Origin: Promethearchaeota archaeon
Lineage (GTDB): Archaea; Asgardarchaeota; Lokiarchaeia; Sigyniarchaeales; SOKP01
Assembly: GCA_019894975.1 (NCBI GenBank)
Contig: JAGXNO010000012.1
Location: forward strand, 1-64,000
Reading direction: 5' to 3'
Length of the DNA: 64,000 nucleotides
Positions 444-27,262 of the stretch are shown here, piece by piece. Every line of letters begins with the position of its first letter. Position 1 is the first letter of the stretch. The notes beneath the pieces were generated by a model. That model saw only the letters and a program-made list of their open reading frames with translations, did no database searches and had not been told where the DNA came from. A program made the translations under genes and the position numbers.

Positions 444-463
444 AGAACAAGTGGTGAAAGTAA

Positions 464-1678: not shown

Positions 1679-1807
1679 TCTATAGAAAATAAAATTTTTA
1701 TGGAAATCTCTTTACCTAGAGTAACTCATGAATCATCGGTTTTATAGTACATAAATGTTATGTTCTAATGTAAGTAAAAATATGTTCTAATTAGGTGATA
1801 ATTAATT

Positions 1808-3958: not shown

Positions 3959-4202
3959 TGCTTAAATTATAAGAATCAAACTAATTTCAAAATTAGGGTG
4001 CTTTATTAATGCTTAGTTAGATTTTTTTATAGGACAAACCCAGGATGAAAATATATCAAATTAATACCAAAATTCCCCTAAAATCTGCGAAGACCTTCTA
4101 AATCTAAAAACAAAATATTAAGTTTAGGTTATATCAAGAAGTAAATCATTTCTCAAGTTATTTGTATTTTCATCAAATAATTAATAGAGGATTTATAGAT
4201 AG

Positions 4203-4688
4203 ATGTGTGCAAAAGCTTATTTTAAGAAACCCGGAAAGAGTGATTTGGTCCTGAGAGAATTGAGTAAACTCCCATATCAATTTGTACTCCTTAGAAATGT
4301 GTTCATAAGTCTACAGTGGCCTGTGACCTACCAAAAAACCACTGAATCAGTGAAATCGTGTCAAATAGATTATGTTGTTATTGGTCCTTCAGGTATATTT
4401 ATAATTGAAGCAAAAAATTGGGACGAAATTACATTTAAAGAAAAGACTCCACATGAAGAAGTTGATAAGGCGGGTCTAATAATGTATATAAAACTCAATC
4501 GCTATTTTACTAAAAAGATTCCTATCTACAACATCGTAGCTACAATAAAGCATGGGTCTCTTATTCGATACGGATTTGTACATCAATTATCTGTGTGGCA
4601 ACTAACCAACTTTATATATAGTCAGGACAGCAATATATCAAAAGCAGAAATCCGTAAAATAAGGAGATTACATATGAGTAACAAATGA
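4203..4688 (+). CDS. NERD (nuclease-related) domain protein
   Basis: QIDYVVIGPSGIFIIEAKNW PD-(D/E)xK NERD motif. Confidence 0.8.
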   Translation: MCAKAYFKKPGKSDLVLRELSKLPYQFVLLRNVFISLQWPVTYQKTTESVKSCQIDYVVIGPSGIFIIEAKNWDEITFKEKTPHEEVDKAGLIMYIKLNRYFTKKIPIYNIVATIKHGSLIRYGFVHQLSVWQLTNFIYSQDSNISKAEIRKIRRLHMSNK

Positions 4689-4982
4689 CCCTTTTTCTAA
4701 AATGTATATATCTGATTTGAAAATTAATTCAATTTTTGGAAATTTCTCCTATTGGGGAAGATTATACCTTATTTTTTTTTATACTGACTGTATTTTTTTT
4801 ATTACTCATTATTATCAACTCTCGTTTTCATTCTTGGGTAATAATTTACCCAAGAACAGAAGATTATTCAGAGAAGTTATTCTTGGGGATTAGAATATAA
4901 ATTTTGATCTTAAGGGTAATTATAAATAAAATATAAACTAAAATACATCTATATTACTATTTATAGAAGTTGAATTTAAGAA

Positions 4983-6518
4983 ATGGAAACTATAAAAGAA
5001 CCATCAAGAGACATCCCTATCCGTGATAAAGTAGACGTGATAGTTGTCGGAGGAGGTCCTGCTGGGATAGGAGCAGCGTTATCTTCTGCACGAAATGGAG
5101 CTAAAACAGTTCTTATAGAACGATTTGGAAGTTTGGGAGGACAGCAAACTCAAGGTCTTAATTCAGTTTTCTCACGGGTTGATCCCCAATTACATAATGG
5201 GATAGTACATGAAGTAATTCATCGTCTTATGGAAGGTGGTGCTATGAGAAAACCAGATGAAAGGCAAATAAGAAGTAATCCCATGGTATCTCGCTTTATT
5301 AAAAGATATGGGGAAGAAAATATTCCAAAGCGACTGCTTAACACGAATGTAGGTTGGTGGGGTGGAGAGACGATCTTTGACCTTGAATATTATAAATTTC
5401 TTCTTGATTCAATGATGCAAGAAGCGGGTGTTAATTTATACCTTCATTCCTTTGCGGCTGCAGCAATAAGAGATGGAAATACACTAAAAGGCATAATTAC
5501 AGAAGGTAAGGAAGGAAGACGCGCACTTTTGGGAAAAGCTGTAATTGATACTACAGGTGATGGAGATATAGCATGGAAATGTGGTGCACCGGTAATGGAT
5601 GATAAGATACCTTTAGGCCGACGTAAAGGTCGTAATATGGGATCATTGACCGCTTTCTACCTTGGAGGGGTAGATGTCAGGAAATGGTTAGATTTCAGGA
5701 AAGCTCATATGGATGAATGGGGTCAAATGTATGGGGGTCATAGAATTATTAAAGAAGCCCGAAAGAAAGGGGCACATATCAGAGGTGACAGTATTATATT
5801 ATCACCAATGCATAGTGTTCATGGTGGTGGACGAGTATGGGTTATGAACCCCATGTATGGTCCAAGAGAAGATCACCATTTATGGATGCCTGAAGAACAA
5901 ACAAATCTTGAAATAAGCTTAAGAAAGCAAGCTTTTGCGGTCCAAAATTTATTAAAGCAGCAAATTCCTGGTTTTGAAAAGTGTTTCGTTGAAAAAACCG
6001 CCAACTATCCAGTAACAACAATGCACAGAATCATTGGTGACCATGTAGTTAATGTTGCTGAAATGCGTGAGGGTAAAGCGTTTGAGGATTCAATTGCTAT
6101 AAACAATCAACCCCCAGACATATGGGAGGTTACTGGTAGGTGGGGTTATGAAATTCTCCCTCATGATATTCCTTATCGCTCTATAGTTTCTAAAGAAGTT
6201 GATAATCTACTAGCTGCGGGTACAACTATTTCATGTGGAATTTTTACAAATGGAGGTTTGAGGTACTGTACACCAAGTATGTGTACAGGTCAAGCAGCAG
6301 GCACAGCTGCAGCCCTAGCTGCAATGAATAATATAAGTCCCAAAGATCTAGATGTAAATCTATTACGAGATACTCTTCGTATGCAAAAAGCTGTTGTTAG
6401 TGTCAGAGAGGTGACAGAGGAAATTATTGAACCATATCGTTTCATGAAGAGCATCTCAGTAGTAAATAAAAAGAATTCAGATGTTAGTATAGATGAAGAA
6501 GCAATAGGTCGATACTAA
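4983..6518 (+). CDS. FAD-dependent oxidoreductase (FAD_oxidored/PF12831-like)
   Basis: DVIVVGGGPAG, IDTTGDGD, IPYRSIV..VDNLLAAG and GQAAGTAAALA. Confidence 0.88.
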   Translation: METIKEPSRDIPIRDKVDVIVVGGGPAGIGAALSSARNGAKTVLIERFGSLGGQQTQGLNSVFSRVDPQLHNGIVHEVIHRLMEGGAMRKPDERQIRSNPMVSRFIKRYGEENIPKRLLNTNVGWWGGETIFDLEYYKFLLDSMMQEAGVNLYLHSFAAAAIRDGNTLKGIITEGKEGRRALLGKAVIDTTGDGDIAWKCGAPVMDDKIPLGRRKGRNMGSLTAFYLGGVDVRKWLDFRKAHMDEWGQMYGGHRIIKEARKKGAHIRGDSIILSPMHSVHGGGRVWVMNPMYGPREDHHLWMPEEQTNLEISLRKQAFAVQNLLKQQIPGFEKCFVEKTANYPVTTMHRIIGDHVVNVAEMREGKAFEDSIAINNQPPDIWEVTGRWGYEILPHDIPYRSIVSKEVDNLLAAGTTISCGIFTNGGLRYCTPSMCTGQAAGTAAALAAMNNISPKDLDVNLLRDTLRMQKAVVSVREVTEEIIEPYRFMKSISVVNKKNSDVSIDEEAIGRY

Positions 6519-6541: not shown

Positions 6542-8128
6542 TTATCTAAATAATATATACTTAGCTGAAGTGATATTAGGTAGTTTTGCGAGTTGGAGCA
6601 GTACATCCTCAGGTACAAAATTATCTACATTTATAAGAGAAATAGCAATACCATCTAGCTCCCTACGACCCAACTGAAATCCTGCAATGTTGATTTCTTT
6701 TTCACCAAGAAATGTTCCCACTCGGCCTACAACGCCGGGAACATCTTGATTCTCTAACATTAACATCCCACCTGATAATTCCGCCTCAATAGGAAATAGA
6801 TTGATCTTTACGATCTTAGAAACATTCCCGAAGATTGTTCCCGCTACTGATGTTTTACCTTTCTCAGTGATAGTAATTACACGAATCAAACTCGTATAAT
6901 TTTCTGCTTTCTTTGACTTTGTCTCTGTTATTTTTATTCCACGTTCTTCAGCTATCATACGTGCATTAACTAAATTGACCTCTTCAGTCTGATGTTGAAG
7001 AATTCCTTTTAAGACTGAAATGGTAAGTGGTTCTATTGAAAGGTCTGAAGCATCTCCTAAATACTCCACACGGAGTTCATTGAGTGGATTTTCAAGAAGT
7101 TGTCCATGAAATGACCCTAATTTCTCACAGAGGGTGAGGTAAGGTTGTAGTAGAGGGAGTAACTCTGCTGCCACAGAAGGAAAGTTAATTGAATTGCGAA
7201 TTATCCCTTTGTTAAGTAAATCACTAATTTGTTCTGCGATCAATACAGCAACCTTTTTTTGAGCTTCATTAGTTGAAGCACCTAAATGAGGAGTTAGAAT
7301 TGCATTGGGATGTTTATATAGTAATTTATCTGAGGGGGGTGGTTCTACGGGGAAAACATCAAGTGCGATACCCTTAATATACTCAGATTCAAGAGCGTTT
7401 AAAAGATCATCTTCATTAATTAAAGCACCCCGAGCACAATTAATTATAAAAACTCCTTTTTTCATCTTTGTAATTGTCTGAGCATTAATCATCCCCTTTG
7501 TTTCAGGTGTAAGTGGCGTATGATAGCTAATGAAATCAGATCGAGCATAAATTTCATCAAGGTTAACAGGTTCTATCCCTAACTTCAGCATATCTTCTTT
7601 AGAAACATAAGGATCATAGCCTAAAACTACCATTTTAAGCCCCAAAGCTCGTTCAGCTACTATTTTCCCAATGTTACCAATACCCACAATCCCCAGAGTT
7701 TTATCAGTGAGTTCGGTTCCTATAAACTTCTTCTTCTCCCATTTTCCCGCCTTCATTGAAGCAGAAGCTTGGGGTACTTGACGAGCTAGAGCAAACATTA
7801 AAGCAATTGCGTGTTCTCCAGTAGTTATAGTATTTCCTCCTGGTGTATTCATAACCACGACACCACTTTTTGTAGCAGATTTTGTATCAATATTGTTTGT
7901 GCCAGAACCAGCACGACCTATTACTTTCAAACGAGAAATTTTATTAAATGTTTCAGCTTCTACTTTTGTAGCGCCGCGGAGAGCTATTCCATCATAGTGA
8001 TCAATGATACTAGCTAATTCTTCTGGAGTTAATTTTCCTTTAACGTCCACTTGAATTCCCTCTCGATTGAATACTTCAATAGCGGCCTCATGAAGATTAT
8101 CGAGTACAAGCACTTTCAAATTTCCCAT
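6542..8128 (-). CDS. serA: D-3-phosphoglycerate dehydrogenase with ASB and ACT domains
   Basis: RAGSG, GIGNIG, INCARG and TPHLGAST; C-terminal ACT domain (DVPGVVGRVG...NIA). Confidence 0.95.
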   Translation of the reverse strand: MGNLKVLVLDNLHEAAIEVFNREGIQVDVKGKLTPEELASIIDHYDGIALRGATKVEAETFNKISRLKVIGRAGSGTNNIDTKSATKSGVVVMNTPGGNTITTGEHAIALMFALARQVPQASASMKAGKWEKKKFIGTELTDKTLGIVGIGNIGKIVAERALGLKMVVLGYDPYVSKEDMLKLGIEPVNLDEIYARSDFISYHTPLTPETKGMINAQTITKMKKGVFIINCARGALINEDDLLNALESEYIKGIALDVFPVEPPPSDKLLYKHPNAILTPHLGASTNEAQKKVAVLIAEQISDLLNKGIIRNSINFPSVAAELLPLLQPYLTLCEKLGSFHGQLLENPLNELRVEYLGDASDLSIEPLTISVLKGILQHQTEEVNLVNARMIAEERGIKITETKSKKAENYTSLIRVITITEKGKTSVAGTIFGNVSKIVKINLFPIEAELSGGMLMLENQDVPGVVGRVGTFLGEKEINIAGFQLGRRELDGIAISLINVDNFVPEDVLLQLAKLPNITSAKYILFR

Positions 8129-8328
8129 TTACTCTCATCCTTTCTGTTTATTCACGTAAAATTTTTAATTTGCTATAAATCTAAATCCTACTGATTGATA
8201 GAATAAAATTTGTTCATTTAAATTTATTACTACAAGAAAGATTAGAAGCATGATTATAAAGAATTATATAGGTAATTTAATTTACACCTATGCGAAACAG
8301 AGCTGAGAAAAAATAAACGTTTTAGATA

Positions 8329-10152
8329 TCATTTACGCACTAATTCTTTAAATTCCTTTAAGACATTAAGATTATTAAACTTTTTATCCTGCAAGATACG
8401 TTCAATATAATTTTCATCGCTCTTTATTACTTTTTTCAGCAATTCCAAAGCTTTTTCTGTATTATGTCTTAATGATTCAAGACAAGCGAGATTATATAAA
8501 ATTTCACTATTCGTTGAATCCTTCTTCAATGCCTTGTTAAGATAACTTTCGGCTTTTTCAAAATTTCCCATACTTAAAAACAAATAGCCAAGATTGTTTT
8601 GAACATCAGCAACGTTATAATTATAAGTTTTAGGGTCGTTTTTTGCATAAACTTTCAAGATTTTTAATGCACCAAGATATAATCGCTCCGCATCTTCAAA
8701 TTTTTGTAATCTGGTGGATACAGTCCCGAGAGAATTCTGAATAAGAGCAACATTATATGCATACACTTCTGGATTTTTTTCTGCTAATTGTTTAGAAATC
8801 TTTAATGCTTCACTGAACCTTGGTTCTGCTTCCTCAAATCTATTTAAAGTAGCATATAAATCTCCAAGATCCAATAGAGTAAGGACTAATTCAGGGTAAA
8901 CTTCCTCAGGGTAATGTTCTGCTATTGTCTTTTCAATTTTTAAGGCTTCTAGGTGCATCCTTTCAGCATCTTCAAATCTCTTTAATTCAGTATAGACCAG
9001 CCCAAGATTACTCTGTGTCTTAGCAATATCGATTAGATACATATCATAAGACATTTTTGCTAATGTTTTGTAGGTTTCTATGGAATCAATAGAACCATCC
9101 TGAAGATCTTCTATTAAGTCTAAATCAATACCTACATTTCCAAAACTGCTTTTCTTTGATGGTTCTTCTGGAAGATATATACCGTAAAATCGTTTTAATA
9201 ATTCATTATATGCCTTCATATCATCAAGATACGAATTATCTAGACCACTAAAGTCTTTCGAATGAAAATCAGGAGAATGGGCATCGTAATATTGTTTTTC
9301 TAATTCCTTGTATGACCCTAAGGCATTGCTATATATTTTTTCTGCCTCTTCAAATCTCTTCAAATCTATATATAACGTTCCGAGGTTTTTTTGAGTTGCA
9401 GCGATATAGGGTAGATATATTCTGTAATATTTTTTCGCCAGATTTTGGTATAATTCTAAAGCATTAAGATATACTTTCTCTGCAGTCTCAGAATTTCCTA
9501 ATACAGATAATAGAGTTCCAACTACTATTAGAATTGGTGCTTTATATTTATCTTCAAGGATAAAAAGTTCTTCTGCAATATCAATCAATCTTTTGTGTGT
9601 ATAATCAAACTGTTCTATACTATTGGCAATTGCTAGAAACTCGGTTACCAATTCTTCAGTCGGAATTAATTTTGCTTTATGATAAAGAACCTCAATTTTA
9701 TCAAGAAGATCATCTTTAAATCTCTTAATTTTACGCTCATAATAGTTTAAAGCTTTTTCCTGATGTATTTCATTTGTAAAGAGCACTAAAACTTCCTGAA
9801 TTTGGGGGAATGAAAATTCATATATCCCCACTTTGTCTTTTTTTGCTTTCATCAGGCCTGTATCTAATAATTCACGGAAGATATTCTCAAAATTTGGTAA
9901 TTTAAAGGAAATTTTAATGCTTTCACTATCAATGTTGGTTTCTATCTCTGTATTTAAAACAGATAGATTCTTAATCAACTCTAATGCCTCTTCATTTGAT
10001 GAAAGGATCTCTTCAATTACTTGATTATAAAAATCCACTACTTTTGTTTCATCCAAAACCTTAATTTTATCTAAATCTATTCTTTGATAATTTTTTTTTA
10101 TAATCTTTCCTAGAGCACTATGGTCCTCAGGGAGTTTTTTGACTAATTCCAT
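8329..10152 (-). CDS. Tetratricopeptide repeat protein
   Basis: Repeated units such as IAATQKNLGTLY..LKRFEEAE, plus a terminal YNLACL repeat. Confidence 0.88.
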   Translation of the reverse strand: MELVKKLPEDHSALGKIIKKNYQRIDLDKIKVLDETKVVDFYNQVIEEILSSNEEALELIKNLSVLNTEIETNIDSESIKISFKLPNFENIFRELLDTGLMKAKKDKVGIYEFSFPQIQEVLVLFTNEIHQEKALNYYERKIKRFKDDLLDKIEVLYHKAKLIPTEELVTEFLAIANSIEQFDYTHKRLIDIAEELFILEDKYKAPILIVVGTLLSVLGNSETAEKVYLNALELYQNLAKKYYRIYLPYIAATQKNLGTLYIDLKRFEEAEKIYSNALGSYKELEKQYYDAHSPDFHSKDFSGLDNSYLDDMKAYNELLKRFYGIYLPEEPSKKSSFGNVGIDLDLIEDLQDGSIDSIETYKTLAKMSYDMYLIDIAKTQSNLGLVYTELKRFEDAERMHLEALKIEKTIAEHYPEEVYPELVLTLLDLGDLYATLNRFEEAEPRFSEALKISKQLAEKNPEVYAYNVALIQNSLGTVSTRLQKFEDAERLYLGALKILKVYAKNDPKTYNYNVADVQNNLGYLFLSMGNFEKAESYLNKALKKDSTNSEILYNLACLESLRHNTEKALELLKKVIKSDENYIERILQDKKFNNLNVLKEFKELVRK

Positions 10153-10406
10153 TACTTTATTTGGGTATCTTACCTTAAATCACTTCTTCTTCTTCCTATT
10201 GTTGAATTTCATAATCTAATATTTAAATTTACTTCTCATAAATTAATTCTTACACAATCTTATTAGTGAAAAAATAGTACTATTATCTTAAATTTTTTAT
10301 ATTATTGTTGCTAGATATTAACTCGATCTAAAAAGAAATCTAGAAGAAATTCGATTTACAAACAACTAAGAGTGGATAATTTTCCAGAAATTTATGAATA
10401 AATTAG

Positions 10407-10997
10407 GTGAATTTTAAATTTTTGAACGTTAAGATACAGTATTTAATTCTAAAATTAAATAAATTGAAAAAAAGTCATATAATTCTAATCTTTCTTATTG
10501 TTATTGGTATTACGGCATTAATATTGCCCTATACTTTTTTTCCTCTTATTAACACAGAATTGATTTGGATCTCACCCACTTGCATGATACCCGAGGGATG
10601 TCGTAACTCTGATTATTTCACACTTCCTAATAACGACCTAATTCAAAACAAATATGATCTCGTAATCACTGGTCCGTCATTTTTTCCTTTTTTTCTTACG
10701 TTCAAACATATTGACTCAAGTAGAGAGTACACAATTAATAGCACAATTAATGATGAAGAAAATGTTGTAACCATAACTTTTCGCATGATCCCTGGAAAAT
10801 ATTTAGTTTATGGTGATCTTGATCATTTTTATCTGCAATTGTGGGAACATGGGATTATATCATCTGATTTTGAGGACTCATTTTATATATATAATACCAT
10901 TTCTGTAGTGTTTTTTTTTGGAAGTATTGGATTCGTCTTTTTAAGAAAGAAATACCAAATACGAAGAATGAATATGCGAATCAAGATGAGAGAATAA
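10407..10997 (+). CDS. Hypothetical membrane protein (N- and C-terminal TM helices; start uncertain)
   Basis: Two hydrophobic segments flank a soluble domain; basic C-terminal tail. Confidence 0.6.
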   Translation: MNFKFLNVKIQYLILKLNKLKKSHIILIFLIVIGITALILPYTFFPLINTELIWISPTCMIPEGCRNSDYFTLPNNDLIQNKYDLVITGPSFFPFFLTFKHIDSSREYTINSTINDEENVVTITFRMIPGKYLVYGDLDHFYLQLWEHGIISSDFEDSFYIYNTISVVFFFGSIGFVFLRKKYQIRRMNMRIKMRE

Positions 10998-11003
10998 GCA
11001 ATT

Positions 11004-11720
11004 TTAAATTCGTTTCTTTTCTTTCTGAAGCATTTTTAAATCTCTTGAAATAAAAGATTCTCCATAATGAGTGTATAAAACGGCTGCAGGATTGTGAGGA
11101 TTTGACCTATCTTTAGCAATAAATGTAGTTACAGGTGCTTTAGAAAGATGAGTGAACGTAACATCATGCCCAACACATAATCCAATTATGATATTTAAAT
11201 CAGTTTTTGCTTTATTGAGTAATAGTGCTTGTGCTACAGGGTTACATGTCATAATTCCTATCGGATATCCTGTTTTTGAGATCATTGTAAATTCTTTAGG
11301 GACATCAACATCTGTCTTTTTAATTGATTCAGTTTTACAGCACGCGGAACATACTTCAAAACCATATTTAGTTAGAATTTCAGCAGTTTTGCTAGCCTCT
11401 TTTCTCAAACCAACACAGAAAGCTAATCCTAACCTTTTAAAACCCATCCCTTTAGCATATTCTATTGTATCTTTTAAACGGGGCCAATGAATATACCCCT
11501 GAGCTTCAACTATTGATGCGACGCTAGTTGACTTTTTCACAAATTCATCTGTTTTGTAGAGTTTCATTACTTCCTGTTCAATTTCAGAATTTACAATCAT
11601 TGGACAATTTTCTTTTCCTGTATTAGGATTTCCCATTGTACAAAATTGAATGCTGTTACAACTATGGCACGTAGGACCTAATAACACTTCATTATTAGGT
11701 TTTTCTAAATCTTCTGGCAT
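11004..11720 (-). CDS. DUF1847 family Cys-rich metal-binding protein
   Basis: GLAFCVGL, CCK, CNPVAQA, GLCVGHD and PVTT.IAKDR...HNP. Confidence 0.88.
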   Translation of the reverse strand: MPEDLEKPNNEVLLGPTCHSCNSIQFCTMGNPNTGKENCPMIVNSEIEQEVMKLYKTDEFVKKSTSVASIVEAQGYIHWPRLKDTIEYAKGMGFKRLGLAFCVGLRKEASKTAEILTKYGFEVCSACCKTESIKKTDVDVPKEFTMISKTGYPIGIMTCNPVAQALLLNKAKTDLNIIIGLCVGHDVTFTHLSKAPVTTFIAKDRSNPHNPAAVLYTHYGESFISRDLKMLQKEKKRI

Positions 11721-11783
11721 TTTAAATCACTATCCAATTAAATCATTATTTTCTATATTAAGTTTATTTTATCTAATAATTAC

Positions 11784-12584
11784 CTAAGATTTTTTATTAA
11801 GGGAAATAGCTTTATTTGGACATTTTGAAATACAGATTCCGCATCCAAAACACATCTTAGAATTCAATTGCAGTTTGCCATTATGCATAACTCTTGCTCC
11901 AAAATTACACCATTTTTCACAATTACCACAATTTATGCATAATTCTAAATCTGTCGTAGTAACAAAGTCACTTTTAACCATTTGTGGAGAACCACTCTTA
12001 AGAAATTTGTTTAGAACGACGCAACAGCAAGAACAACAATTACATACTAAATAATAAAACTGCGGATTTGGGAAATAGATTAGTTGATGTATTAATCCTC
12101 TTTCATCGCATTCTTCTAATAGTTCTTTAATTTCTTTTTTTGTGACTTTTTTTAAATTGGAGGATTTAAACGGAATTTCATATAAAGTTTCACCAAAACC
12201 AATATGAATGCATGTATGAAGAGGATGGTCGCAGTTAGGTTTATTGTATTTTCGTTGGATTGCTCTACAATAACACCAACTAATCCCTACGACTTTCGAT
12301 TTACTTAATAAGCCAAAAATCTCTTGAGAGGTAACAAATTTTGTGTCAACGTTAATATTCCTATCTAAGGGAACAACTTTTCCACCCCATCTACCCTTTA
12401 GAATATATTTATCAACAATACCTAAAGTATAGATTCTAAATTTCTCATCTATTTTTCGGAAAAATTCAAGTATAAATAATTCAAAAATTCCAAATAAACT
12501 CGATAACACCCTACCCAAGGGAGGGATTTTCTTTAAGACTTTATCTAATTTAGATTCGAATACTCTATTAGGCAAAAACTTCAA
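11784..12584 (-). CDS. 4Fe-4S dicluster domain protein
   Basis: CYCR, CNCCSCCC, and two CxxCxxCxxxC motifs at the C-terminus. Confidence 0.85.
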   Translation of the reverse strand: MKFLPNRVFESKLDKVLKKIPPLGRVLSSLFGIFELFILEFFRKIDEKFRIYTLGIVDKYILKGRWGGKVVPLDRNINVDTKFVTSQEIFGLLSKSKVVGISWCYCRAIQRKYNKPNCDHPLHTCIHIGFGETLYEIPFKSSNLKKVTKKEIKELLEECDERGLIHQLIYFPNPQFYYLVCNCCSCCCVVLNKFLKSGSPQMVKSDFVTTTDLELCINCGNCEKWCNFGARVMHNGKLQLNSKMCFGCGICISKCPNKAISLNKKS

Positions 12585-12662
12585 ACTAATTGAACAAATA
12601 ATTAAATTGTTTTAATTTTTATTATAAGAAATGATTTAAATTTTTATTTTAATTTTAGTTCA

Positions 12663-12670
12663 TTTTTATG
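12663..12670 (+). promoter_or_regulatory. Putative TATA box of the tRNA gene
   Basis: TTTTTATG about 25 nt upstream of the tRNA 5' end. Confidence 0.45.
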
Positions 12671-12691
12671 ATCCTAGTACGATATTAAATT

Positions 12692-12803
12692 GCGGGAATT
12701 GCCAAGTCTGGTAAAGGCGCTGGACTTAGATATTACTTCAATATCTGCTGGACTCAGAATTCAGTCTCGTAGGAGTTCGGGAGTTCAAATCTCCCTTCCC
12801 GCA
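12692..12803 (+). tRNA. tRNA-Leu(CAG) with 28-nt BHB intron at position 32/33 (intron 12726-12753)
   Basis: Acceptor stem GCGGGAA/TTCCCGC, discriminator A, long variable arm, and T arm GGGAG-TTCAAAT-CTCCC. The BHB has central helix CTGG/CTGG, bulges AC|T and intron stem TAGATATT/AATATCTG. A T-run follows. Confidence 0.88.
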
Positions 12804-12976
12804 TTTTTTAAAAAATAATTCTTGGGGTAATATCCATTCATGCATTCACTGATAGGATTTATAAATTGATTACTGATTTTATTCACTTAATAGAAATAAT
12901 AAGGTATATTATTTTTTAAATCAAAAATGATAATATATTATTAAAATATTAAGAAAATCTATTCACACATATTATT

Positions 12977-13645
12977 ATGTCAAAAGAGCCCCCCCCAGAA
13001 GAAGAAGAAGAAAAATTAATTGTTTTCCAATATGTTGATGAACTGAATGAATATCAAGAGTTAGAGCTTGAAGCCGACGTTCAAATACCAGAATTACTTG
13101 ATTCGGATTTTATCCTACTCTTCGTAGATCCTAAAAGATATCAAGTATGGATTTGGCATGGAGCTAATACTACAACTCGAATGAAGTTTATTGCTGCTAA
13201 ACTTGCACCAGGTATAAGGGATAGATATGGGATTGGATATAAAATCTCAGCAGTGGATGAGGCTAATGAAACTTTAGGTTTCAAAATAATGGCGGGCATC
13301 GAAAAAGAAATCGATTATACTGAAGTTCAAAAAGGACCAGCTTATACAGAGACTGAGGAAGGTTTAGAACTCATTGAATCGTTATCGAGAGAAAAAATCT
13401 TATTGATACTAGAAAAAGCGGGAATACCTGACGGATATGAGAGAAAAATGGTAATAGTAAAAAATAATATATTTGGTTACAAAGAATATGACAGAGAATA
13501 TTTAGGATCAACAATAAGAGAGAAAAAACTCTTTCCTTTAAAAGAGGAAGTTGAAGATGGAACATATTTAGCTGAGGATTATACCCCTAGAATGCTCTTC
13601 TCGTATAATAATGTTGTTTTAACAGAACTTCTACTGAAAAAATAA
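12977..13645 (+). CDS. Gelsolin-domain protein (one gelsolin domain plus an extra C-terminal domain; Asgard 1DGelX-like)
   Basis: LLDSDFILLFVD....VWIWHG...MKFIAA...VDEANET..F is the gelsolin repeat pattern. Confidence 0.75.
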   Translation: MSKEPPPEEEEEKLIVFQYVDELNEYQELELEADVQIPELLDSDFILLFVDPKRYQVWIWHGANTTTRMKFIAAKLAPGIRDRYGIGYKISAVDEANETLGFKIMAGIEKEIDYTEVQKGPAYTETEEGLELIESLSREKILLILEKAGIPDGYERKMVIVKNNIFGYKEYDREYLGSTIREKKLFPLKEEVEDGTYLAEDYTPRMLFSYNNVVLTELLLKK

Positions 13646-16503: not shown

Positions 16504-17082
16504 TTACTTTACCATAATTACTACTGTCTCTGAAATATTTTGCATTACTCTAATTCTGTTTTTAGGATCTCCTGAATTTTTTGATATTCCAATGAGAAAA
16601 TCAATAATTATTAAAGCGGATCCTTTGAAAATATTATTAATTGCATAGTTCGAAGAAGATGCTAATTGAAGAGTATGCTCATCTACGGTTCTAATACTTA
16701 ATGCCATTTTCCCCAGAGTTTGGCCATTATTATGTGCCTCTAAGCCCCAATGGTATAAAAAACCTATCAAAAAATCAAACGGCATTGTAAACCACCATGC
16801 TCTAACAGGATCAAAGAAATTAAGTCCATACCATGGATTAATTAGAAGCCAGGAAAAAGCAGAACCGATCAAGCCAATAATTATAGAATCAAAAATGAAT
16901 GCAATTATTCGTTTTAACGAAGGAGCATAAATCACACCTTCTGGTTCAATCTTGTGTGTCGGGGTAGATGTTTCAGCTGGTTCTGTTCTCTCTTTCAAGT
17001 TTGCTCCACAAGCCTCACAAAACGCCGCATCTGGTTCTAATTCATTCCCACATTTGGGGCAAAATTTTAGTGCCATTTTCAA
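16504..17082 (-). CDS. RDD family membrane protein with N-terminal zinc ribbon
   Basis: FCPKCG...FCEACG; KRIIAFIFD; GQTLGK. Confidence 0.88.
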   Translation of the reverse strand: MKMALKFCPKCGNELEPDAAFCEACGANLKERTEPAETSTPTHKIEPEGVIYAPSLKRIIAFIFDSIIIGLIGSAFSWLLINPWYGLNFFDPVRAWWFTMPFDFLIGFLYHWGLEAHNNGQTLGKMALSIRTVDEHTLQLASSSNYAINNIFKGSALIIIDFLIGISKNSGDPKNRIRVMQNISETVVIMVK

Positions 17083-17233: not shown

Positions 17234-18376
17234 CTATAAATATAAATGAAATCCCTGTTCTATAAGCTCTTTCGCTCCGGAAAATTCAGAAACGTTAATT
17301 AATTTGTTTAGATCTTGAATTTCAAGTAATTCCTCGTGAAACTTTTCTTTAAATTTAAGAGTGAATTTTCTCATTAAATTTTGCAAAATTGCGTTTTTTC
17401 TATTTGTTATTAAAACCACCGCAAAACCTAAATCGTCATAGTTTACGATAATTTCAGTATTTTTTGTTTGAAGAACATCAATTTGATTGCGTTTATCTAC
17501 AAACTCAGATAATATGTGGTTAATCCCAATAAGGATATTTCCCCAGATAGCTGAATCTAATTCATCTGGAGATTTAGTAAATTTGTAAGAATAAAGTAAA
17601 ATTCCAGATTTATGATATATATTAACGTAATATATTTTATTTGTTAATTCTAAGAACATTTCAGGCTTTCTGAGCAAAATTACGCAGAATCCAAAAATAA
17701 TAATCCACAAAGAAATTATGTGTAACTCTCTAAATATCGGAGCTTTAAGGAAAATGTATAAAATGTACATTACTATAGGAATGGGGAAAAATAGTGTATT
17801 TTTAATCAAACTCTTGGTTAGATTTTTATTTCGGGCTTTTTTATGAATGAGAATAGAAAGAGTAAAGTAATAAAATGCATTTGAAAATTGGAAAATGGAA
17901 ATTAATATCCCTGCAGTGAAACCATAGGTGTAATTTATTTGAGAAGGATCTTGTATAAAAAATGGGGGAGATTGAGAAATATTGATATTTATACTAATTG
18001 AGTTCGAGAAGAATAAAATTCCAATCAACATTCCTAAAAGAGTAATAAAGTACAGAAATGGAAAATCAGGCACCTCTTTATAATGCCTTAGAAACGTGAA
18101 TATTAAAGTATTTAGGAGTAAACTAACTAAACCAGAAAATATGGAAAGCTTCCATAAAAAAATATTTAGTGTTTCAGAAAAAAAAAAGGTGATCGAGCTG
18201 ATATAAAGAGATGAATAGATAATTATAATGTTAAAAATTGTTAAAAAATTCAAAACTGCCATGAACTTAATTCCATAGTTTTCACGAAATCGTATAATAT
18301 GAATTAGGGTAAAGATTGCTATACAAAAAATGAAAAAATACCCAATTCCTAATATAATAAAGAACGCGACATACAT
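17234..18376 (-). CDS. 7TM membrane protein with C-terminal longin-like domain
   Basis: Seven hydrophobic helices, then IYYVNIYHKSGILLYSY...ILIGINHILSEF...F...F. Confidence 0.7.
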   Translation of the reverse strand: MYVAFFIILGIGYFFIFCIAIFTLIHIIRFRENYGIKFMAVLNFLTIFNIIIIYSSLYISSITFFFSETLNIFLWKLSIFSGLVSLLLNTLIFTFLRHYKEVPDFPFLYFITLLGMLIGILFFSNSISININISQSPPFFIQDPSQINYTYGFTAGILISIFQFSNAFYYFTLSILIHKKARNKNLTKSLIKNTLFFPIPIVMYILYIFLKAPIFRELHIISLWIIIFGFCVILLRKPEMFLELTNKIYYVNIYHKSGILLYSYKFTKSPDELDSAIWGNILIGINHILSEFVDKRNQIDVLQTKNTEIIVNYDDLGFAVVLITNRKNAILQNLMRKFTLKFKEKFHEELLEIQDLNKLINVSEFSGAKELIEQGFHLYL

Positions 18377-18440
18377 GATTTTATTCGTTATCTATATTTT
18401 CTATTCTGTAAACCATTCAAGAATTTTTTTAAATAATTTA

Positions 18441-19550
18441 TTATTTTTTAGTTTTTTGTATATATGGAGTAAAGGTTTCCGTGAGTAATCCTTTTGCATT
18501 TCCAAATTCAGAAACATCTATCAACCCTTTCATACTTTTCAATTTTTCTCCATTTAAATCTGAAAACTGACGCATAAAATTACTAACTGCGTTTTCGATA
18601 AACGCATGTTTATGGTTTGTAGTCAGAATTATTGCATAATCATAGGTGTTATCGTATTCAAAAATTAAATCTCGATCCTTCATTTTTATGAGATTTAATT
18701 GATCTTTCCTATCAATAAAATTGGTTAGGATGTGATTTATCCCAATTAGGATTGATCCCTTTAATAAGGAATCATCTGTCTCCTTTCCTGTTTCAAAATT
18801 AAATGAATATAAGAGAATTCCACTCTTATGAAAGATGATAAAATCATAAATCTTATTTGTAAGCTCAAGAAATAGAGATGGTCTTCTATACATTGCATAA
18901 GATACAAAAATTGCTCCTATAAAATAAATAAGGTAGTAAATAATTTTATAAACTATGTTTTGAGTAAAGAGATGCATTGTATAGGATATTATCACTGCGG
19001 AAAATTGGATGGTAAGTAACCCTAAATTTCTTCCTGATCCTTTATCTCTGACATCATTTAGATTATTAAATAGATAAAATATTAGAAGAGATAATACGAT
19101 TATATTGAAAAATATTATAATTAATAACAGGATAGAATTAGTAAATCTGTAATAATAATTATTACTACTTCCTTGGAATATTTCAATAGAATTTGGGAGA
19201 ATTAATAAACTTGTAATCATTCCCCCTACAAGAGCATAAAGTATTGAAGGGAAACTAGATATTTTCTTGATTTTTAATGTCATTTTTTGCTGAATACTTA
19301 ACACGCTGGTTGAGATTAACCAAAAGATTAAAGAAGTTTTCCATAACAATAGAGCAACAGATTCCTCTATTAAGGATTCTGTCGAAAGAGTATATAATGG
19401 GAAAAAAAATATACCAAAAAAAACATAAAGTAGAATGTTTAAAATTGTATTTCGATAAGTTCCATAAATTTCTCTTTTGAGAAGAGTATAATAAGTACCA
19501 CCAATGGAAATACAAATCGATATAAATATAAGAATTATACTAAAAATCAC
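18441..19550 (-). CDS. 7TM membrane protein with C-terminal longin-like domain (paralog of the adjacent gene)
   Basis: Seven TMs; shares FLELTNKIY...HKSGILLYS and ILIGINHIL with 17234-18376. Confidence 0.7.
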   Translation of the reverse strand: MIFSIILIFISICISIGGTYYTLLKREIYGTYRNTILNILLYVFFGIFFFPLYTLSTESLIEESVALLLWKTSLIFWLISTSVLSIQQKMTLKIKKISSFPSILYALVGGMITSLLILPNSIEIFQGSSNNYYYRFTNSILLLIIIFFNIIVLSLLIFYLFNNLNDVRDKGSGRNLGLLTIQFSAVIISYTMHLFTQNIVYKIIYYLIYFIGAIFVSYAMYRRPSLFLELTNKIYDFIIFHKSGILLYSFNFETGKETDDSLLKGSILIGINHILTNFIDRKDQLNLIKMKDRDLIFEYDNTYDYAIILTTNHKHAFIENAVSNFMRQFSDLNGEKLKSMKGLIDVSEFGNAKGLLTETFTPYIQKTKK

Positions 19551-19743: not shown

Positions 19744-21666
19744 ATGATGAATTCTGCTTATTTGACAATGGATAAATTCATTACATACTTGAAAAAGGAA
19801 GGTATAATTCAAGATCTTTTAGAATTTTATGATATAAACCAAAGCAAACACATTCTAGACACATATTTTGATAAACTCATTGAAATCCTCGATAAAAAAG
19901 GAAATATTTATGCTTCTAAAAACAGTGTAAACCAATTTAAATTAAAATTTAATTCATTGGGTAAGTTTTATGAAAATAATTTACATGAAACGGAAAGAAA
20001 GTCATTAGGGGAATTTTATACTCCTAAATCTATAGTGGATTATATTTTAGACGCTGTCGATTATAAAGATGGTGAAGATATTCAGAATAAAAAACTTGTC
20101 GACATAAGTTGTGGATCTGGAAGTTTTATCATTTTAGCTATTAGAGTTTTAATCAATAATTGTGTTAAGAGCTTTAATAAGAAAGATATTTCTGAAATTT
20201 CACCTAAAGAGGCTAGATACATCATTTTGAAGGTAAATGAAAACATATCTGGCATAGATATAAATCCGATTGCGTGTATTTTATGTCAGATTAATATTCA
20301 TCTTGAACTATTTGATTTATTAAAAGTCATTAAAGATAAGGATAAGAATTATCATTTACCACAGTTTAGTATAAAAAATTCTAACACTTTTACAATTCTT
20401 AAATCGGAGATTTATGATTTCATAGTAGGTAATCCACCATATTTATTTATTAGAGACATTCCAGATGAGCAGAAGTTGGTTATTGAAAAGGGTGATTTTG
20501 ATACAAATAATGGTCAATATGATTATTATCAAATCTTTATTGAGCTTGGTATTAGACTCTTAAAAAATAAAGGAAAACTTGGGTATATAGTTCCAGATTC
20601 ACTATTAGTCCTATCCAACCGCTCCATATTAAGGAAATATATATACAATACCACAAAAATTAGAGAAATATATGAAACTGGTCCAAAATTTGAGGATCCT
20701 ATTGTATCAAATATTATTCTCGTTTTAGAAAAAGAATCTGATATGCAAGAAAGAGAGAAAAACTCTATTAAAGTTAAAATTTCAGACCAAATAAAGAGAG
20801 ATATTTTACAAAAGGATTTACAGAAATGGGATTACAAATTTTTAATTCACCTAAGTAAGGAGGATTTATTTATTCTTAACCATCTAAAAAAATTCTTTCC
20901 TACATTAAAAGATTTAATGATGAAAAAAGATTTTAATATTCTATTAAGTAGAGGGATAGAGTTAACGAAAAAAGGAGAGATTATTTTTTGTGAGAATTGT
21001 AGGAAATATTTCCCTGTCCCAAAAAGAACACTTGATTGCCCAGAATGTAAAAAACATCTAAAAGAAAGAAATATTGAACTGATTATTTCTGATTTTGTAC
21101 CGGAAGAAGAAGAAGGTAAATTTGAATTATTTATAAATTCAATAAATCGCTATAAAGTCAAAAATTATAAATATGTTAAGGTTGATAAACCAGGGATTAA
21201 TTATAAAGATTTTAATATTTATAGTGACCGGATTATAATTAGACAGCTAAGCCAAAATAGTTTAATCTGTGCAACTTATGAGAAAAAATTCTCTTTAACA
21301 TCCCAATCTTTTTATAATTTAAGAGTTTACAGTTCAGCTATAAAAGAATTTAACAATTTATATCTCTTGGGCATTATCAATTCCAAACTCTTATCTTATT
21401 ATTTTATAAAACTATTTGGTTCTTATAAGAGACTCTTTCCCCGAATATTAATTGAAAAAATTAAAGATTTTCCTATTAGTATTCCCGGTAACCTAAATGA
21501 AAAAAAATTAGCATCTCAAATAATTAAAAAAGTTGAGATTTTATTAAATTTAAATGAAGGGGAAGAGGAGAAATCTAAGAAGATCCAAAGAGAAATTGAT
21601 GAGATTATATTTAAACTTTATAGAATACCTGATTTATATAAGGAAAAGATATTAGAATTTGTATAA
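19744..21666 (+). CDS. N6-adenine DNA methyltransferase (TaqI/Eco57I-like, gamma class) with Zn-finger insert
   Basis: GEFYTP, DISCGSGSF and VGNPPY; YLLGIINS (TaqI_C-like); CENC...CPEC. Confidence 0.88.
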   Translation: MMNSAYLTMDKFITYLKKEGIIQDLLEFYDINQSKHILDTYFDKLIEILDKKGNIYASKNSVNQFKLKFNSLGKFYENNLHETERKSLGEFYTPKSIVDYILDAVDYKDGEDIQNKKLVDISCGSGSFIILAIRVLINNCVKSFNKKDISEISPKEARYIILKVNENISGIDINPIACILCQINIHLELFDLLKVIKDKDKNYHLPQFSIKNSNTFTILKSEIYDFIVGNPPYLFIRDIPDEQKLVIEKGDFDTNNGQYDYYQIFIELGIRLLKNKGKLGYIVPDSLLVLSNRSILRKYIYNTTKIREIYETGPKFEDPIVSNIILVLEKESDMQEREKNSIKVKISDQIKRDILQKDLQKWDYKFLIHLSKEDLFILNHLKKFFPTLKDLMMKKDFNILLSRGIELTKKGEIIFCENCRKYFPVPKRTLDCPECKKHLKERNIELIISDFVPEEEEGKFELFINSINRYKVKNYKYVKVDKPGINYKDFNIYSDRIIIRQLSQNSLICATYEKKFSLTSQSFYNLRVYSSAIKEFNNLYLLGIINSKLLSYYFIKLFGSYKRLFPRILIEKIKDFPISIPGNLNEKKLASQIIKKVEILLNLNEGEEEKSKKIQREIDEIIFKLYRIPDLYKEKILEFV

Positions 21667-24159: not shown

Positions 24160-25143
24160 ATGGAAAATCTTCCCAATACATATCGTCTTAAGCAGGTACT
24201 GAAAAATTATTTTGAAGAGGTTGATGGTATTTTAGGTGTAGCGATATGTGATAGAGACGGCTTTATTATTGCTTCGGAATTCAAGGAAGGTGATGATGAA
24301 GAATCTGACTCCGTTATTGGAGCAATGTCAGCAATTCTTGATACTTATATTGATAGAATTAAAAGTGAATTTGGAACGAAGGGAAGTTTCTTCAATATAA
24401 CTATGATGGGGGATAAAAAATTTGCTTATTGTTCACAAGGCCCATTATCTATTTTAACAACAGTTGCAGATCAATCTACAAGTGATATAGAGTTAAAAGT
24501 ATATTCTGAGCATATAGCAGGAAAAGTTGAATTGATTTTAGATGGTAACAAGGATGTTTCCCCTAAGATCCCCGAAATTATTAGAGCGTTGGCAAAAACA
24601 AGGGCAGGATCCCTTCAAAACATGGCAGGAGAGTATTCTCATAAACTTATTTTAACAGGTGATTTTCAAGTAGGGAAGTCTTCCCTTATTAGAAGGTTTG
24701 TAAAGAATACGTTTGAAAAAGATTATATTTCGACTATTGGAGTGCAATTATCGAAGAAAATAGTTGATTTAACAGACAAAATAAAGATGAACTTTATCTT
24801 ATGGGATATAGGTGGTCAAATTAGACAAATGGCACCTTATCGCACTAAATTCTATAATGGTGCTAATGCTGCTTTTATCGTTATCGACAGAACTAGAGAG
24901 GACACTATGAGTAGTGTAAAAAAGTGGTATGAGGATATTAAGAATTCAATCCCAAAGAATATTCCTATTGTTTTGGTTGGAAATAAATCAGATTTAGTAG
25001 CTGAGATTAAAATTAGTGAGGAGGATATTAAGAAAGTAGCTCAAGATTTTGGTTTTCATTATATCCTTACTAGTGCTAAATCAGGAGAAAATGTTAATGA
25101 TGCATTTTTATATATTGCTTATCGAGTTATAGAAACACTATAA
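24160..25143 (+). CDS. Roadblock/LC7-like domain fused to a Rab-like small GTPase
   Basis: N-terminal GILGVAICDRDGFIIAS; G1 GDFQVGKS, G2 TIG, G3 WDIGGQ, G4 NKSD, G5 TSAK. Confidence 0.9.
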   Translation: MENLPNTYRLKQVLKNYFEEVDGILGVAICDRDGFIIASEFKEGDDEESDSVIGAMSAILDTYIDRIKSEFGTKGSFFNITMMGDKKFAYCSQGPLSILTTVADQSTSDIELKVYSEHIAGKVELILDGNKDVSPKIPEIIRALAKTRAGSLQNMAGEYSHKLILTGDFQVGKSSLIRRFVKNTFEKDYISTIGVQLSKKIVDLTDKIKMNFILWDIGGQIRQMAPYRTKFYNGANAAFIVIDRTREDTMSSVKKWYEDIKNSIPKNIPIVLVGNKSDLVAEIKISEEDIKKVAQDFGFHYILTSAKSGENVNDAFLYIAYRVIETL

Positions 25144-25242: not shown

Positions 25243-26163
25243 ATAGTTCTAAAGGTAGATTGGCACGATGTGCTCACCACTTGAAACGCTGCTGGATATG
25301 TTATGGGATTTTCAATAAAAGAACTTACCTATAAAGGAAGATATCTTGTGTATCTCAGTGAAAAAGAATTAACAGGCCCTTGGTTCAGCTTTACTTTAGA
25401 AGGGAAAAAAATAGGTTCTATTCCAGTCATTCTAAGAAATATCGAACCTACTCCAATATATAAAATGATTAATACACGAAAAGGAACTGCTATAAGTAGA
25501 ATTACCTTGGATTTCAGTATCACAGAATATCTTAAGAAATTAACTGAAGAAAATAAATTGAAATCGATTCCGATTAAAAAGGAAGAATACGTTCGTTTAT
25601 ATAAAGATATCTTTAATCCTCCCAAAGTACCCTATATTAGTACGTTCTTTACTTTGAAAAACATTTCAGATTATGCTATGAAAAATTTCTCAATGTACTT
25701 CGTCTTAGATTTTGATATAAATGGACTTGACGGATTTGATAATGATTTATCAGGTTATGATGCGGAAAATGATGTGATTTATCAATATGATGACACAGGA
25801 TTGTATGGTGGATTTTCCCCTATTTCTAAATCAACAAATTACGAATCATGTCTAACACATGATTTTAAAATTGATAATCAAAATTTAAACCTTTCAAATA
25901 GTTTATTTGAAGGTTCAGGAGAAATCTTATCTGCTTTACAAATTGAATTCAAGACGCTTGAACCTAACCAATCTTTTCAGACTGCAATGGTTATTTCTGG
26001 GGGATTTAGCAAAGAAGAATTAATTGAAAATATTAAAGAAGGAAAAAACAACGCTATGAAACACTTACATCAAGTAAACAGATCAATCAAGTCAGAACAA
26101 CGTAATCTTCAGGAGGAAGCTTTTATAAAAATCAATCTTCAGCAAGCGGTTGATTGTAAATAA
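25243..26163 (+). CDS. Putative selenoprotein of unknown family (306 aa; in-frame TGA = Sec14)
   Basis: ATA GTT CTA AAG GTA GAT TGG CAC GAT GTG CTC ACC ACT TGA AAC GCT GCT GGA TAT GTT ATG is in frame with ORF 25303-26163. An RBS precedes it and a SECIS-like element follows in the 3' UTR. Confidence 0.72.
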
Positions 26164-26271: not shown

Positions 26272-26988
26272 TTAAATCTTTTTGTGCGACTTTAGATCAA
26301 AATAGGCATCCTCTAGAACATCCAGATACTCAATCAACGCTTTATTCGCAATAGATCTTTGTTCATAAGCTAATTTAATAACGTTCAAGAGATATTTAGG
26401 AAATATAAGATCCATGTAAAAGTCAGAAATAAGAGCATAGTATTCAATATTGTTCTCATCTCTAAAAACTTTAACCAAACGATTATCCCACAATAATTTC
26501 AACGCTCCATATGCGTCCTTAACTCCTTAGGCTCTTAGTTTATCAAGATCTTGTCGTGTTACAATTGCAGTTCTTAATAATCGCAATGTCTCATAAACTT
26601 CAGGATTTATTAAAATATCAACAACACTTAGGTTATCTTCCGTTGTGGGTTGATAATTTTGAAAAAATTTCTGAACTTCGGCAATATATTCCTTTGCAAA
26701 TTGAGTTGGTAAACCAGAGTTTATAGGATCTGCGAATAATTTTGCAGGAGGAACTCTAAGCATATATATATCTTTTGTCAAGACAATCAATTCTGATGGT
26801 AGTCCTTTTACCGAGACCTGTTTTATCATATCTCTTTTCAATAGTTCCATGAGAGTAGCTTCTATATCTACAAATCCCTCAATATATCTATCTCTTAGCC
26901 ATATTGTCAATTCTGATTTAGTCATAACACCTCTATCCCTTAAGTTATCTATTATCATTTGTTTAATCTCATCTTGATAAATGAGAGC
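26272..26988 (-). pseudogene. Hypothetical protein gene with internal TAA and probable 5' truncation
   Basis: ORFs 26527-26958 and 26272-26502 share one frame (LDKLRA*GVKDAYGALKLLWD). The protein-like frame runs up to ALIYQDEIKQ at 26988. Confidence 0.7.
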
Positions 26989-27262
26989 TTTTATTGTGAT
27001 AGATAGAACTCGACAGGATAATTTAAAAAGTGTAGATCTATGGCATAATGAAATAAAAAAATATGTAGGGAAGGAAATAAGTATTATTTTAGTAGGGAAT
27101 AAATCTGATGTGATTGAAAATATTGAAATTAGTGAAGTAAGTATAAAAATGATTGCTGAAGAGAAAGGATTTCATTATATCCTTACTAGTGCGAAGACGG
27201 GAGAAAATGTTCATGATTTATTTCTCTATATCGCATATAAGTTTTTGGAAGGAGTTTCGTAG
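26981..27262 (+). pseudogene. C-terminal half of a Rab-like small GTPase (G1-G3 missing)
   Basis: AFIVIDRTR, GNKSD and TSAKTGENV align with the C-half of the paralog at 24160. No P-loop is present upstream. Confidence 0.82.

Follow-up and report, generated by a model that had tools for sequence, protein, structure and literature searches.

Two adjacent paralogous genes, here called A and B, each encode a seven-helix membrane domain with a longin-type domain at its cytoplasmic end. They lie in a 64,000-nt stretch (the window) of a Promethearchaeota archaeon, comprising positions 1 to 64,000 of the forward strand of contig JAGXNO010000012.1 (assembly GCA_019894975.1). In structure prediction, the membrane part of A takes up the fold of G protein-coupled receptors (GPCRs) and its C-terminal domain that of the longins. 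The 7TM-longin combination is a real receptor-like architecture for which we found no printed description, while its mechanism can be read by fold analogy only. It belongs with the seven-helix receptors that carry a fused output domain, in this case a longin. By the same analogy, A and B may act as subunits of one receptor, or as receptors of different specificity, in an Asgard membrane family whose longin output acts on a small GTPase, a proposal that we hold to be quite possible, if a little short of an even chance.

Gene A (17234–18376, minus strand) is an ATG-initiated open reading frame (ORF) of 380 aa and forms the downstream member of the pair; gene B (18441–19550, minus strand) starts with GTG, encodes 369 aa and lies upstream. 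By their ORF coordinates, the two are separated by a spacer of 64 bp (18377–18440). Residues 1–237 of A (17666–18376, minus strand) correspond to the GPCR-fold seven-helix bundle with its N-terminus outside, as assigned from an AlphaFold2 model and positive-inside counts, and residues 238–380 (17237–17665, minus strand) to a linker helix (P-x-x-F-L-E-L-T-N) followed by the cytoplasmic longin domain, as assigned from a domain model. Residues 1–223 of B (18882–19550, minus strand) form the equivalent seven-helix domain by alignment to the modelled helices of A, and residues 224–369 (18444–18881, minus strand) a cytoplasmic longin-type domain whose fold is assigned from the model of A, given 44% identity to the C-domain of A and shared invariant motif residues. 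BLASTP aligned the two proteins with 116 of 358 positions identical (32%, E 4e-44). In a 96-sequence alignment, identity was 23.2% across the membrane part (51/220) and 44.3% across the C-domain (62/140). The original prediction, made from the DNA letters alone, had described adjacent co-oriented paralogs that share the motifs FLELTNKIY, HKSGILLYS and ILIGINHIL and whose membrane parts are more diverged than their soluble domains; the two minus-strand ORFs, the occurrence of all three motifs in both translations and the two identity values bear out each of these points. Homologs at E ≤ 1e-3 numbered 508 for A and 450 for B. Near-identical public homologs come from metagenome-assembled genomes (MAGs) of Promethearchaeota and other Asgard archaea and are annotated ‘hypothetical protein’, and neither A nor B matched any PADLOC or NCBIfam model.

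The AlphaFold2 model of A, built from 96 homologs, has a mean predicted local distance difference test (pLDDT) score of 84.9 and a predicted template modelling (pTM) score of 0.82. It contains helices at residues 2–29, 37–63, 68–97, 104–121, 153–180, 184–210 and 213–236, and its second outer loop forms a beta-hairpin. B aligned to all seven of these helices, from TM2 to TM7 without gaps; hydropathy at a threshold of 1.6 picks out just six segments in B, the TM6 of which is weakly hydrophobic. Seven transmembrane (TM) helices, as first read from each gene, are therefore recovered by the model for A and by alignment to A for B. Mean lysine plus arginine content across the 96 sequences was 1.99, 2.27, 4.45 and 2.69 residues in the successive inner loops (total 11.4) and 0.18, 0.82 and 1.02 in the outer loops (total 2.0), which places the N-terminus outside and the C-domain in the cytoplasm. 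The original prediction had staked itself on the C-domain not being extracellular, and the positive-inside rule over these 96 sequences supports it.

The A model was compared with known structures in a wide search by VIA, a structure search independent of Foldseek; each of the best 50 rows was either a GPCR, from class A, B, C, T or adhesion, or a designed fold resembling one. These rows reached Z 14.4–16.7 and rmsd 3.1–4.7 Å over 195–225 aligned residues with 7–14% identity, and 48 of the 50 covered the membrane part alone (residues 1 to ~240). Since unrelated helical bundles may score up to about Z 13 through a shared arrangement alone, a likeness of fold alone is claimed. With seven helices, an N-out/C-in topology and a GPCR-type arrangement, the modelled membrane part of A qualifies as a GPCR fold, and the ‘GPCR-like logic’ of the original prediction fits this result. 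Foldseek with the whole A model returned nothing at E ≤ 0.001; its best TM-scores, 0.40–0.43, were for class C receptors, none of them at that threshold. Searches of solved structures with sequence profiles likewise gave no significant match: the best rows for profile A2 were the alpha-2A adrenergic receptor (E 0.02) and Trs23 (E 0.051), and profile A1 retrieved two haemagglutinin entries (E 0.47–0.93).

By sequence, no Pfam 7tm family matched A, B or their relatives. In the alignment, the DRY and NPxxY motifs are not conserved, and neither the inner end of TM3 nor TM7 contains any residue conserved at 80% or more; P238 lies past TM7. The histidine kinase-associated seven-helix family HisKA_7TM (PF16927) was considered and set aside, as it was unmatched in A and B at E ≤ 1, in the 96 members at E ≤ 0.1 and in protein P0190 at E ≤ 0.01; ‘Histidine kinase N-terminal 7TM region’ is one public source's name for a related cluster. 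Conserved polar or aromatic positions of the membrane part comprise S61, W75, S78, S126, Y149, T194, Y204 and the position of G152 of A, which is N in most members. The helix boundaries of the model place them in the outer half of the bundle or an outer loop, an arrangement that fits a predicted pocket open to the outside.

The C-domain of A, modelled alone from a more diverse alignment (pLDDT 84.3), shows strands at residues 13–20, 25–30, 66–68, 73–79 and 83–89 and helices at 40–56, 94–117 and 127–140 of the domain model. Their order, beta-beta-alpha-beta-beta-beta-alpha-alpha, is that of longins, and the five-stranded sheet lies between one helix and two C-terminal helices, as the longin fold demands. 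A short linker helix of low confidence (residues 4–10) precedes strand 1. The best 50 VIA rows for this domain were all longin or roadblock proteins, headed by synbindin (Z 13.9, rmsd 2.8 Å, 125 residues), Sec22 (12.7) and AP-3 sigma (12.3). The first 22 rows were longins at Z 9.9–13.9, mostly covering about residues 12–145. The rows include longins that act on GTPases, with synbindin/TRAPPC4 at 13.9, Bet5/Trs23 at 10.1, Mon1-Ccz1 at 9.1–9.9 and the SRX domain of SR-alpha at 10.1–11.1. Foldseek gave 29 matches at E ≤ 1e-3, the titles of which are nearly all longin proteins, with one Ragulator chain. Domain model, VIA and Foldseek thus agree on the C-terminal longin fold first predicted. Membership of the Roadblock/LC7 family, which has a helix ahead of the first strand and no C-terminal helix pair, was rejected: MglC (Z 9.9), MglB (8.6 and 8.1) and MK-D1 Roadblock3 (8.0) rank below the longins and match residues 8–117 only, without the last helix, whereas the model has two C-terminal helices.

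In Pfam searches at E ≤ 1, A had no match and B no longin match. Sub-threshold matches that recur among the relatives belong to longin families only (Fuz_longin_1, Intu_longin_1 and Sybindin), the best being Fuz_longin_1 at 21.9 bits (E 2.2e-4; cut-off 26.1), Sybindin at 17.6 bits (E 0.0043; cut-off 25) and Intu_longin_1 at E 0.0029. A division into Mon1/Fuzzy-like A and Ccz1/Inturned-like B proteins was tried and rejected, with one of 34 A-type sequences matching Intu_longin_1 and none of the 34 matching Fuz_longin_1 or Sybindin at E ≤ 0.03, all of this below threshold. A language-model atlas (scores 0.78–0.82) pointed to stand-alone archaeal proteins of 140 aa, 22–34% of them with Fuz_longin_1, and is taken as a lead only.

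Conservation is highest in the linker after TM7 (P238, F241, E243, L244, T245 and N246) and in the longin hairpin and central helix, as coupling of the bundle to an output would predict. The central helix, best conserved and least confidently modelled, would fit a surface buried against a partner. Positions at which the A and B lineages have each fixed a different residue are concentrated at 277–280, the start of the central helix, and 299–304, in beta3, the edge by which longin and roadblock domains dimerize in solved structures. Longin GTPase-activating proteins of the FLCN/NPRL2/SMCR8 type have a conserved catalytic arginine in this domain; in the 7TM-longin family, position 296 is conserved as basic, with K in most members and R in A, and may or may not be equivalent to that arginine.

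In an exhaustive profile search, 530 cluster representatives (50% identity) passed E ≤ 0.001, and 145 passed E ≤ 1e-10. Distant members of 350–380 aa align over their full length, indicating that the whole 7TM-longin architecture is old. The genome of the window has two close copies only, A and B; a broader profile adds a third full-length 7TM-longin member and finds the longin type at the start of two smaller proteins. An Asgard genome of the same class (G128) gave 88 profile matches, resolved into 39 full-length genes in 31 units and 43 longin-only parts of larger proteins, after six of the 88 with intermediate query ranges were dropped. For a family without characterized members, this is a very large expansion of paralogs. 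Tandem arrays comprise six genes at locus L070 (5351–12645) and three at L062 (6390–9736). Because family genes elsewhere mostly stand alone or in arrays of no more than six, obligate heterodimerization does not characterize the family as a whole.

The longin type also occurs in other architectures, which marks it as a mobile cytoplasmic module, often on membrane proteins. Three proteins of 742–761 aa without a Pfam domain were noted in the genome of the window, at L083 (3688–5913, minus strand), L084 (3334–5616, minus strand) and L085 (673–2928, plus strand). In hmmsearch, the L083 protein is multi-helical, with several 7TM-profile matches before a terminal longin type, so that the region before the longin is possibly a doubled 7TM module; the longin matches at L084 and L085 fall in open frames of similar size. 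A metagenomic protein of 587 aa (P0362) joins a major facilitator superfamily (MFS)-like domain (MFS_1, E 3.4e-7, below cut-off) to the longin type (residues 438–571) and resembles a transporter-shaped sensor that ends in a longin. Tetratricopeptide repeat (TPR) proteins carry the longin type in the genome of the window (L086, 3485–5527, minus strand, MalT-like, 681 aa) and, at the C-terminal end of an 1128-aa protein, in G128 (L068, 13279–16665, minus strand); TPR and leucine-rich repeat (LRR) proteins also recur beside distant family members. Two further neighbourhoods of the family were recorded. About 3 kb from a distant member lies an unusually long TnpB/Cas12-like protein of 1020 aa with Cas12f1-like TNB and OrfB_IS605 matches (L065, 11315–14374, plus strand). 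At the Asgard locus L072, a 7TM-longin gene is flanked by proteins of 1693 and 2098 aa (71–5149 and 7179–13472, both minus strand) that carry Peptidase_C25, CARDB and dockerin domains, with cohesin in one.

Conservation of the pair was surveyed with profile A1 in 400 genomes of the phylum at E ≤ 1e-5, where matches are not copy numbers. Matches occurred in 177 of the 400 genomes and in 125 of the 134 that belong to the window's own taxonomic family (f1). Ten of these 125 had a single match and the remainder at least two, usually adjacent. Across 16 loci from 11 genera, all of this taxonomic family, the order B-then-A was kept in 15, which answers the synteny check set by the original prediction with a conserved co-oriented pair. 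Neighbouring NCBI locus tags for A-type and B-type proteins were found in eight MAGs, and one locus has three copies (G150). The spacer between B and A, 64 bp here, is ~150–230 bp in most relatives, lengths that do not imply co-transcription.

Immediately upstream of B and divergent from it, an Eco57I/TaqI_C-type N6-adenine DNA methyltransferase of 640 aa (19744–21666, plus strand) was identified by Pfam and PADLOC matches, the latter to Type II, Type IIG and PglX-like models. It adjoins B divergently in 15 of the 16 related loci at ~46–55% protein identity, and no restriction or other effector gene was seen beside it in the window. Downstream of A is an RDD-family membrane protein with an N-terminal zinc ribbon (16504–17082, minus strand; RDD E 1.7e-12, Zn_Ribbon_1 E 1.1e-8), which is found there in 10 of the 16 related loci.

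The roadblock-Rab fusion reported earlier at about 5 kb from the pair is real, a Roadblock-Ras fusion GTPase of 327 aa (24160–25143, plus strand), 4.6 kb from the start of B, with Ras at E 1.2e-38 and Robl_LC7 at E 3.6e-4, below the Pfam cut-off. It is a candidate partner of A and B on neighbourhood grounds only. An ortholog was present within the fetched stretch in 9 of the 16 related loci, so the suggested tie to this GTPase is modest and seen within one taxonomic family; in the distant genome G128, GTPase genes in general were not significantly enriched beside full-length members. The genome of the window contains 72 Ras-family matches in 3.93 Mb, ~1 per 55 kb (1 per 60–69 kb in three other Asgard genomes), a density at which a GTPase gene falls in a 14.5-kb stretch by chance about once in five cases. 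A GTPase neighbourhood as a general property of the family was not supported by the distant loci and the full-length units of G128, both of which are weighed below. For the longin-only proteins of G128, GTPase genes occurred within 1 kb of 5 of 41, where 1.8 would be expected (P 0.03, without correction for multiple testing). Two Ras genes come after the six-gene array at L070 and a Ras gene abuts the member at G123:C192, both of which are suggestive. Gene neighbourhood is at most weak support for a GTPase link.

Two further observations concern the surroundings of the Roadblock-Ras gene itself. It is followed by a gene for a 286-aa protein (25303–26163, plus strand) without Pfam, NCBIfam or PADLOC match; the same protein follows in eight of the nine related loci that have the GTPase gene, the ninth ending at a contig edge, and it may be a real partner of the Roadblock-Ras GTPase. 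A 93-aa ORF (26981–27262, plus strand) covers just the C-terminal half of the Ras profile (75–159, E 8.3e-16), without the P-loop half, and is either a truncated or frameshifted GTPase gene or one whose start was miscalled.

In the mechanism that we propose, the GPCR-shaped bundle would face outward and sense a signal, which the conserved short linker helix after TM7 would relay to the cytoplasmic longin domain. Longin domains would pair via the central helix and the beta3 edge, as in solved longin and roadblock proteins; that the pair formed here is an A-B heterodimer is close to an even chance. The paired longins would then serve as a membrane-held platform on which a small GTPase docks, altering its nucleotide state or its recruitment to the membrane. 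The two folds, the topology, the conserved pairing and the extent of the family are established by the analyses above; from the folds we infer the dimerization, the GTPase partner, the direction of regulation, whether as guanine nucleotide exchange factor (GEF), GTPase-activating protein (GAP) or scaffold, and the existence of a ligand. By analogy with TRAPP, Mon1-Ccz1, MglB and SRX, the most likely partner would be a small GTPase, and GEF activity of A and B would be pure analogy. The most specific form of the proposal, in which a class-C-like A-B heterodimer would switch a small GTPase at the inner membrane face in response to an outside signal, giving an archaeal receptor-to-GTPase pathway, we consider unlikely, if deserving of attention.

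Several observations weigh against the receptor-to-GTPase proposal. Likeness to GPCRs is at the level of fold only, at 7–14% identity and with Z scores to be read against what unrelated helical bundles reach; no Pfam longin model is matched at its gathering cut-off by A, B or any relative, and the central longin helix is modelled with low confidence (pLDDT 50–72). Most units in G128 consist of a single matched gene, with arrays elsewhere reaching six, and one genus of the window's taxonomic family is single-copy (locus L059; genome G149 of genus g2 has one strong copy). The methyltransferase, with no obvious link to the pair, is a steadier neighbour (15/16) than the GTPase, whose linkage in 9 of 16 loci of one taxonomic family may reflect inherited gene order. 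Beyond this group, two of the 12 distant loci had a Ras gene, close to the rate of 0.2 expected by chance, in a scan of 133 of 163 non-overlapping ORFs that left out 30 at locus ends. Around the full-length units of G128, a GTPase gene lay within 1 kb of 4 of 31 (1.8 expected, P 0.10) and within 5 kb of 7 of 31 (5.7 expected, P 0.33).

Part of this evidence is equally what would be expected if A and B were independent receptors, each a monomer or homodimer for a different ligand, descended by tandem duplication and kept adjacent, with longin domains that may still act on a GTPase. We regard this explanation as a real possibility, somewhat on the doubtful side. Singles and arrays of two to six genes elsewhere accord with it (39 genes in 31 units in G128, six at L070, three at L062), as do the copy numbers of one strong copy in G149 and three in G150, both within the taxonomic family of the window. 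Divergence is fastest in the outward membrane parts (23% identity, against 44% in the C-domain), a pattern that a change of ligand specificity would be expected to leave, and the ~150–230-bp spacer of most relatives leaves room for separate promoters. Independent receptors would, however, account less readily for the survival of the two genes in the same order at 15 of 16 loci in 11 genera, or for the clustering of lineage-fixed residues at the central helix and beta3 edge, where domains of this fold usually dimerize.

A different objection concerns the output. The longin could be an adaptor or regulatory module that does not act on a GTPase, tethering a coat-, SNARE-, ESCRT-like or TPR/LRR partner or gating a transport or enzyme activity of the seven-helix part. 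Among the leading structural matches are several longins that are not GEFs (Sec22, VAMP7, Ykt6 and the small subunits of AP and COPI); GTPase genes show no significant excess near full-length members, TPR/LRR proteins lie near distant members while the longin type is itself fused to TPR proteins, and in P0362 the longin is joined to an MFS-like domain. On the other hand, most characterized platforms among the matches bind a small GTPase (TRAPP, Mon1-Ccz1, SRX with SR-beta, MglB, and AP/COPI with Arf), the longin-only proteins of G128 show the modest GTPase excess given above (uncorrected), and the membrane part matches receptors rather than transporters; an adaptor role is, on balance, improbable. 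Far less probable still is that the pair works with the divergent DNA methyltransferase, for example as the membrane component of a defence or DNA-modification system. The constant divergent adjacency and the Type II/IIG/PglX-like PADLOC matches speak for such a link, whereas A and B have no PADLOC or NCBIfam match of their own, none of the ORFs scanned at the 12 distant loci places a methyltransferase next to a family member, and no restriction or effector gene was seen beside the methyltransferase of the window.

We found no description of a 7TM-longin fusion in the full-text literature, a search that did not extend to the supplements of the Asgard clusters of orthologous genes (asCOGs) and of a 2026 preprint, which may list the family. 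The passages available from Tran et al. 2024 (PMC10933270) deal with roadblock and longin proteins that are soluble or fused to GTPases, and do not contain the word ‘transmembrane’; they also report that internal compartments are not seen in cultured Asgard strains and that the tested Asgard GTPase, roadblock and TRAPPC3 proteins did not reach membranes in human cells. In the available passages of Liu et al. 2020 (bioRxiv 10.1101/2020.10.19.343400), 130 Roadblock-superfamily asCOGs and NPRL2-like longin fusions to two-component domains are listed, and ‘7TM’ and ‘transmembrane’ are absent. The 2026 preprint (10.64898/2026.10.28.762692), in the passages at hand, names ‘7TM proteins’ among earlier-reported eukaryotic signature protein (ESP) families and ‘a class C GPCR’ among Asgard-eukaryote structural clusters, with the longin tail unmentioned; this cluster may or may not be the 7TM-longin family. 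The main text of Eme et al. 2023 (PMC10307638) contains no 7TM, GPCR or longin.

Small GTPases number in the dozens in Asgard genomes, alongside many longin and roadblock proteins, and the missing link is what ties these to the membrane or to outside signals. The 7TM-longin family, with up to 39 full-length copies per genome, provides defined and expressible candidates for this link. If the GTPase connection holds, the family has a bearing on how receptor-controlled GTPase signalling arose in eukaryotes; if it does not, the family still constitutes a new and large class of membrane proteins in archaea, with an adaptor fold that resembles those of eukaryotes.

Among known systems, the closest in organism are the soluble and GTPase-fused longin and roadblock proteins of Asgard archaea (Tran et al. 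2024, PMC10933270, in the passages available; PDB 8yqg, 9m28 and 9jue), which belong to the same superfamily; the C-domain of A matched the Lokiarchaeota longin dimer (8yqg_B) and the Rag-like LokiRagM (9m28_A), each at Z 9.4 in VIA. With the TRAPP core (synbindin/TRAPPC4-TRAPPC1, Trs23-Bet5), Mon1-Ccz1 and Fuzzy-Inturned, the C-domain has its fold and element order in common, and A and B are likewise two paralogous longin proteins, their genes adjacent, in the manner of a heterodimeric pair. TRAPP and Mon1-Ccz1 longins, in contrast, are soluble subunits of larger complexes, whereas the longin of A and B is the tail of a seven-helix membrane protein, and the split between A-type and B-type sequences does not follow that between Mon1 and Ccz1.

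Eukaryotic GPCRs resemble A and B in their seven helices, N-out/C-in topology and beta-hairpin in the second outer loop, and the class C dimers of paralogs (GABA-B) recall the adjacent paralogy of the pair. A and B differ from them in lacking a sequence relationship, conserved DRY and NPxxY motifs and a large extracellular domain, and GPCRs signal via a heterotrimeric G protein, whereas the output of A and B is a covalently fused longin domain. Prokaryotic 7TM receptors (HisKA_7TM, 7TMR-DISM) combine a seven-helix sensor with a cytoplasmic output domain, the same design principle with a kinase, cyclase or HD-GYP domain where A and B have a longin. In eukaryotes, LYCHOS/GPR155 acts on GATOR1 and the Rag GTPases, with Ragulator as a membrane-anchored roadblock scaffold. 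A GPCR-like membrane domain, a longin/roadblock complex and a small GTPase would follow the same logic in A and B, the GTPase part by analogy, and a pathway of this kind, if real, would be ancestral or parallel to both GPCR-G protein and LYCHOS-GATOR-Rag signalling. The components of the latter are separate lysosomal proteins, whereas in A and B receptor and longin are joined in one chain, in a cell with no known organelles.

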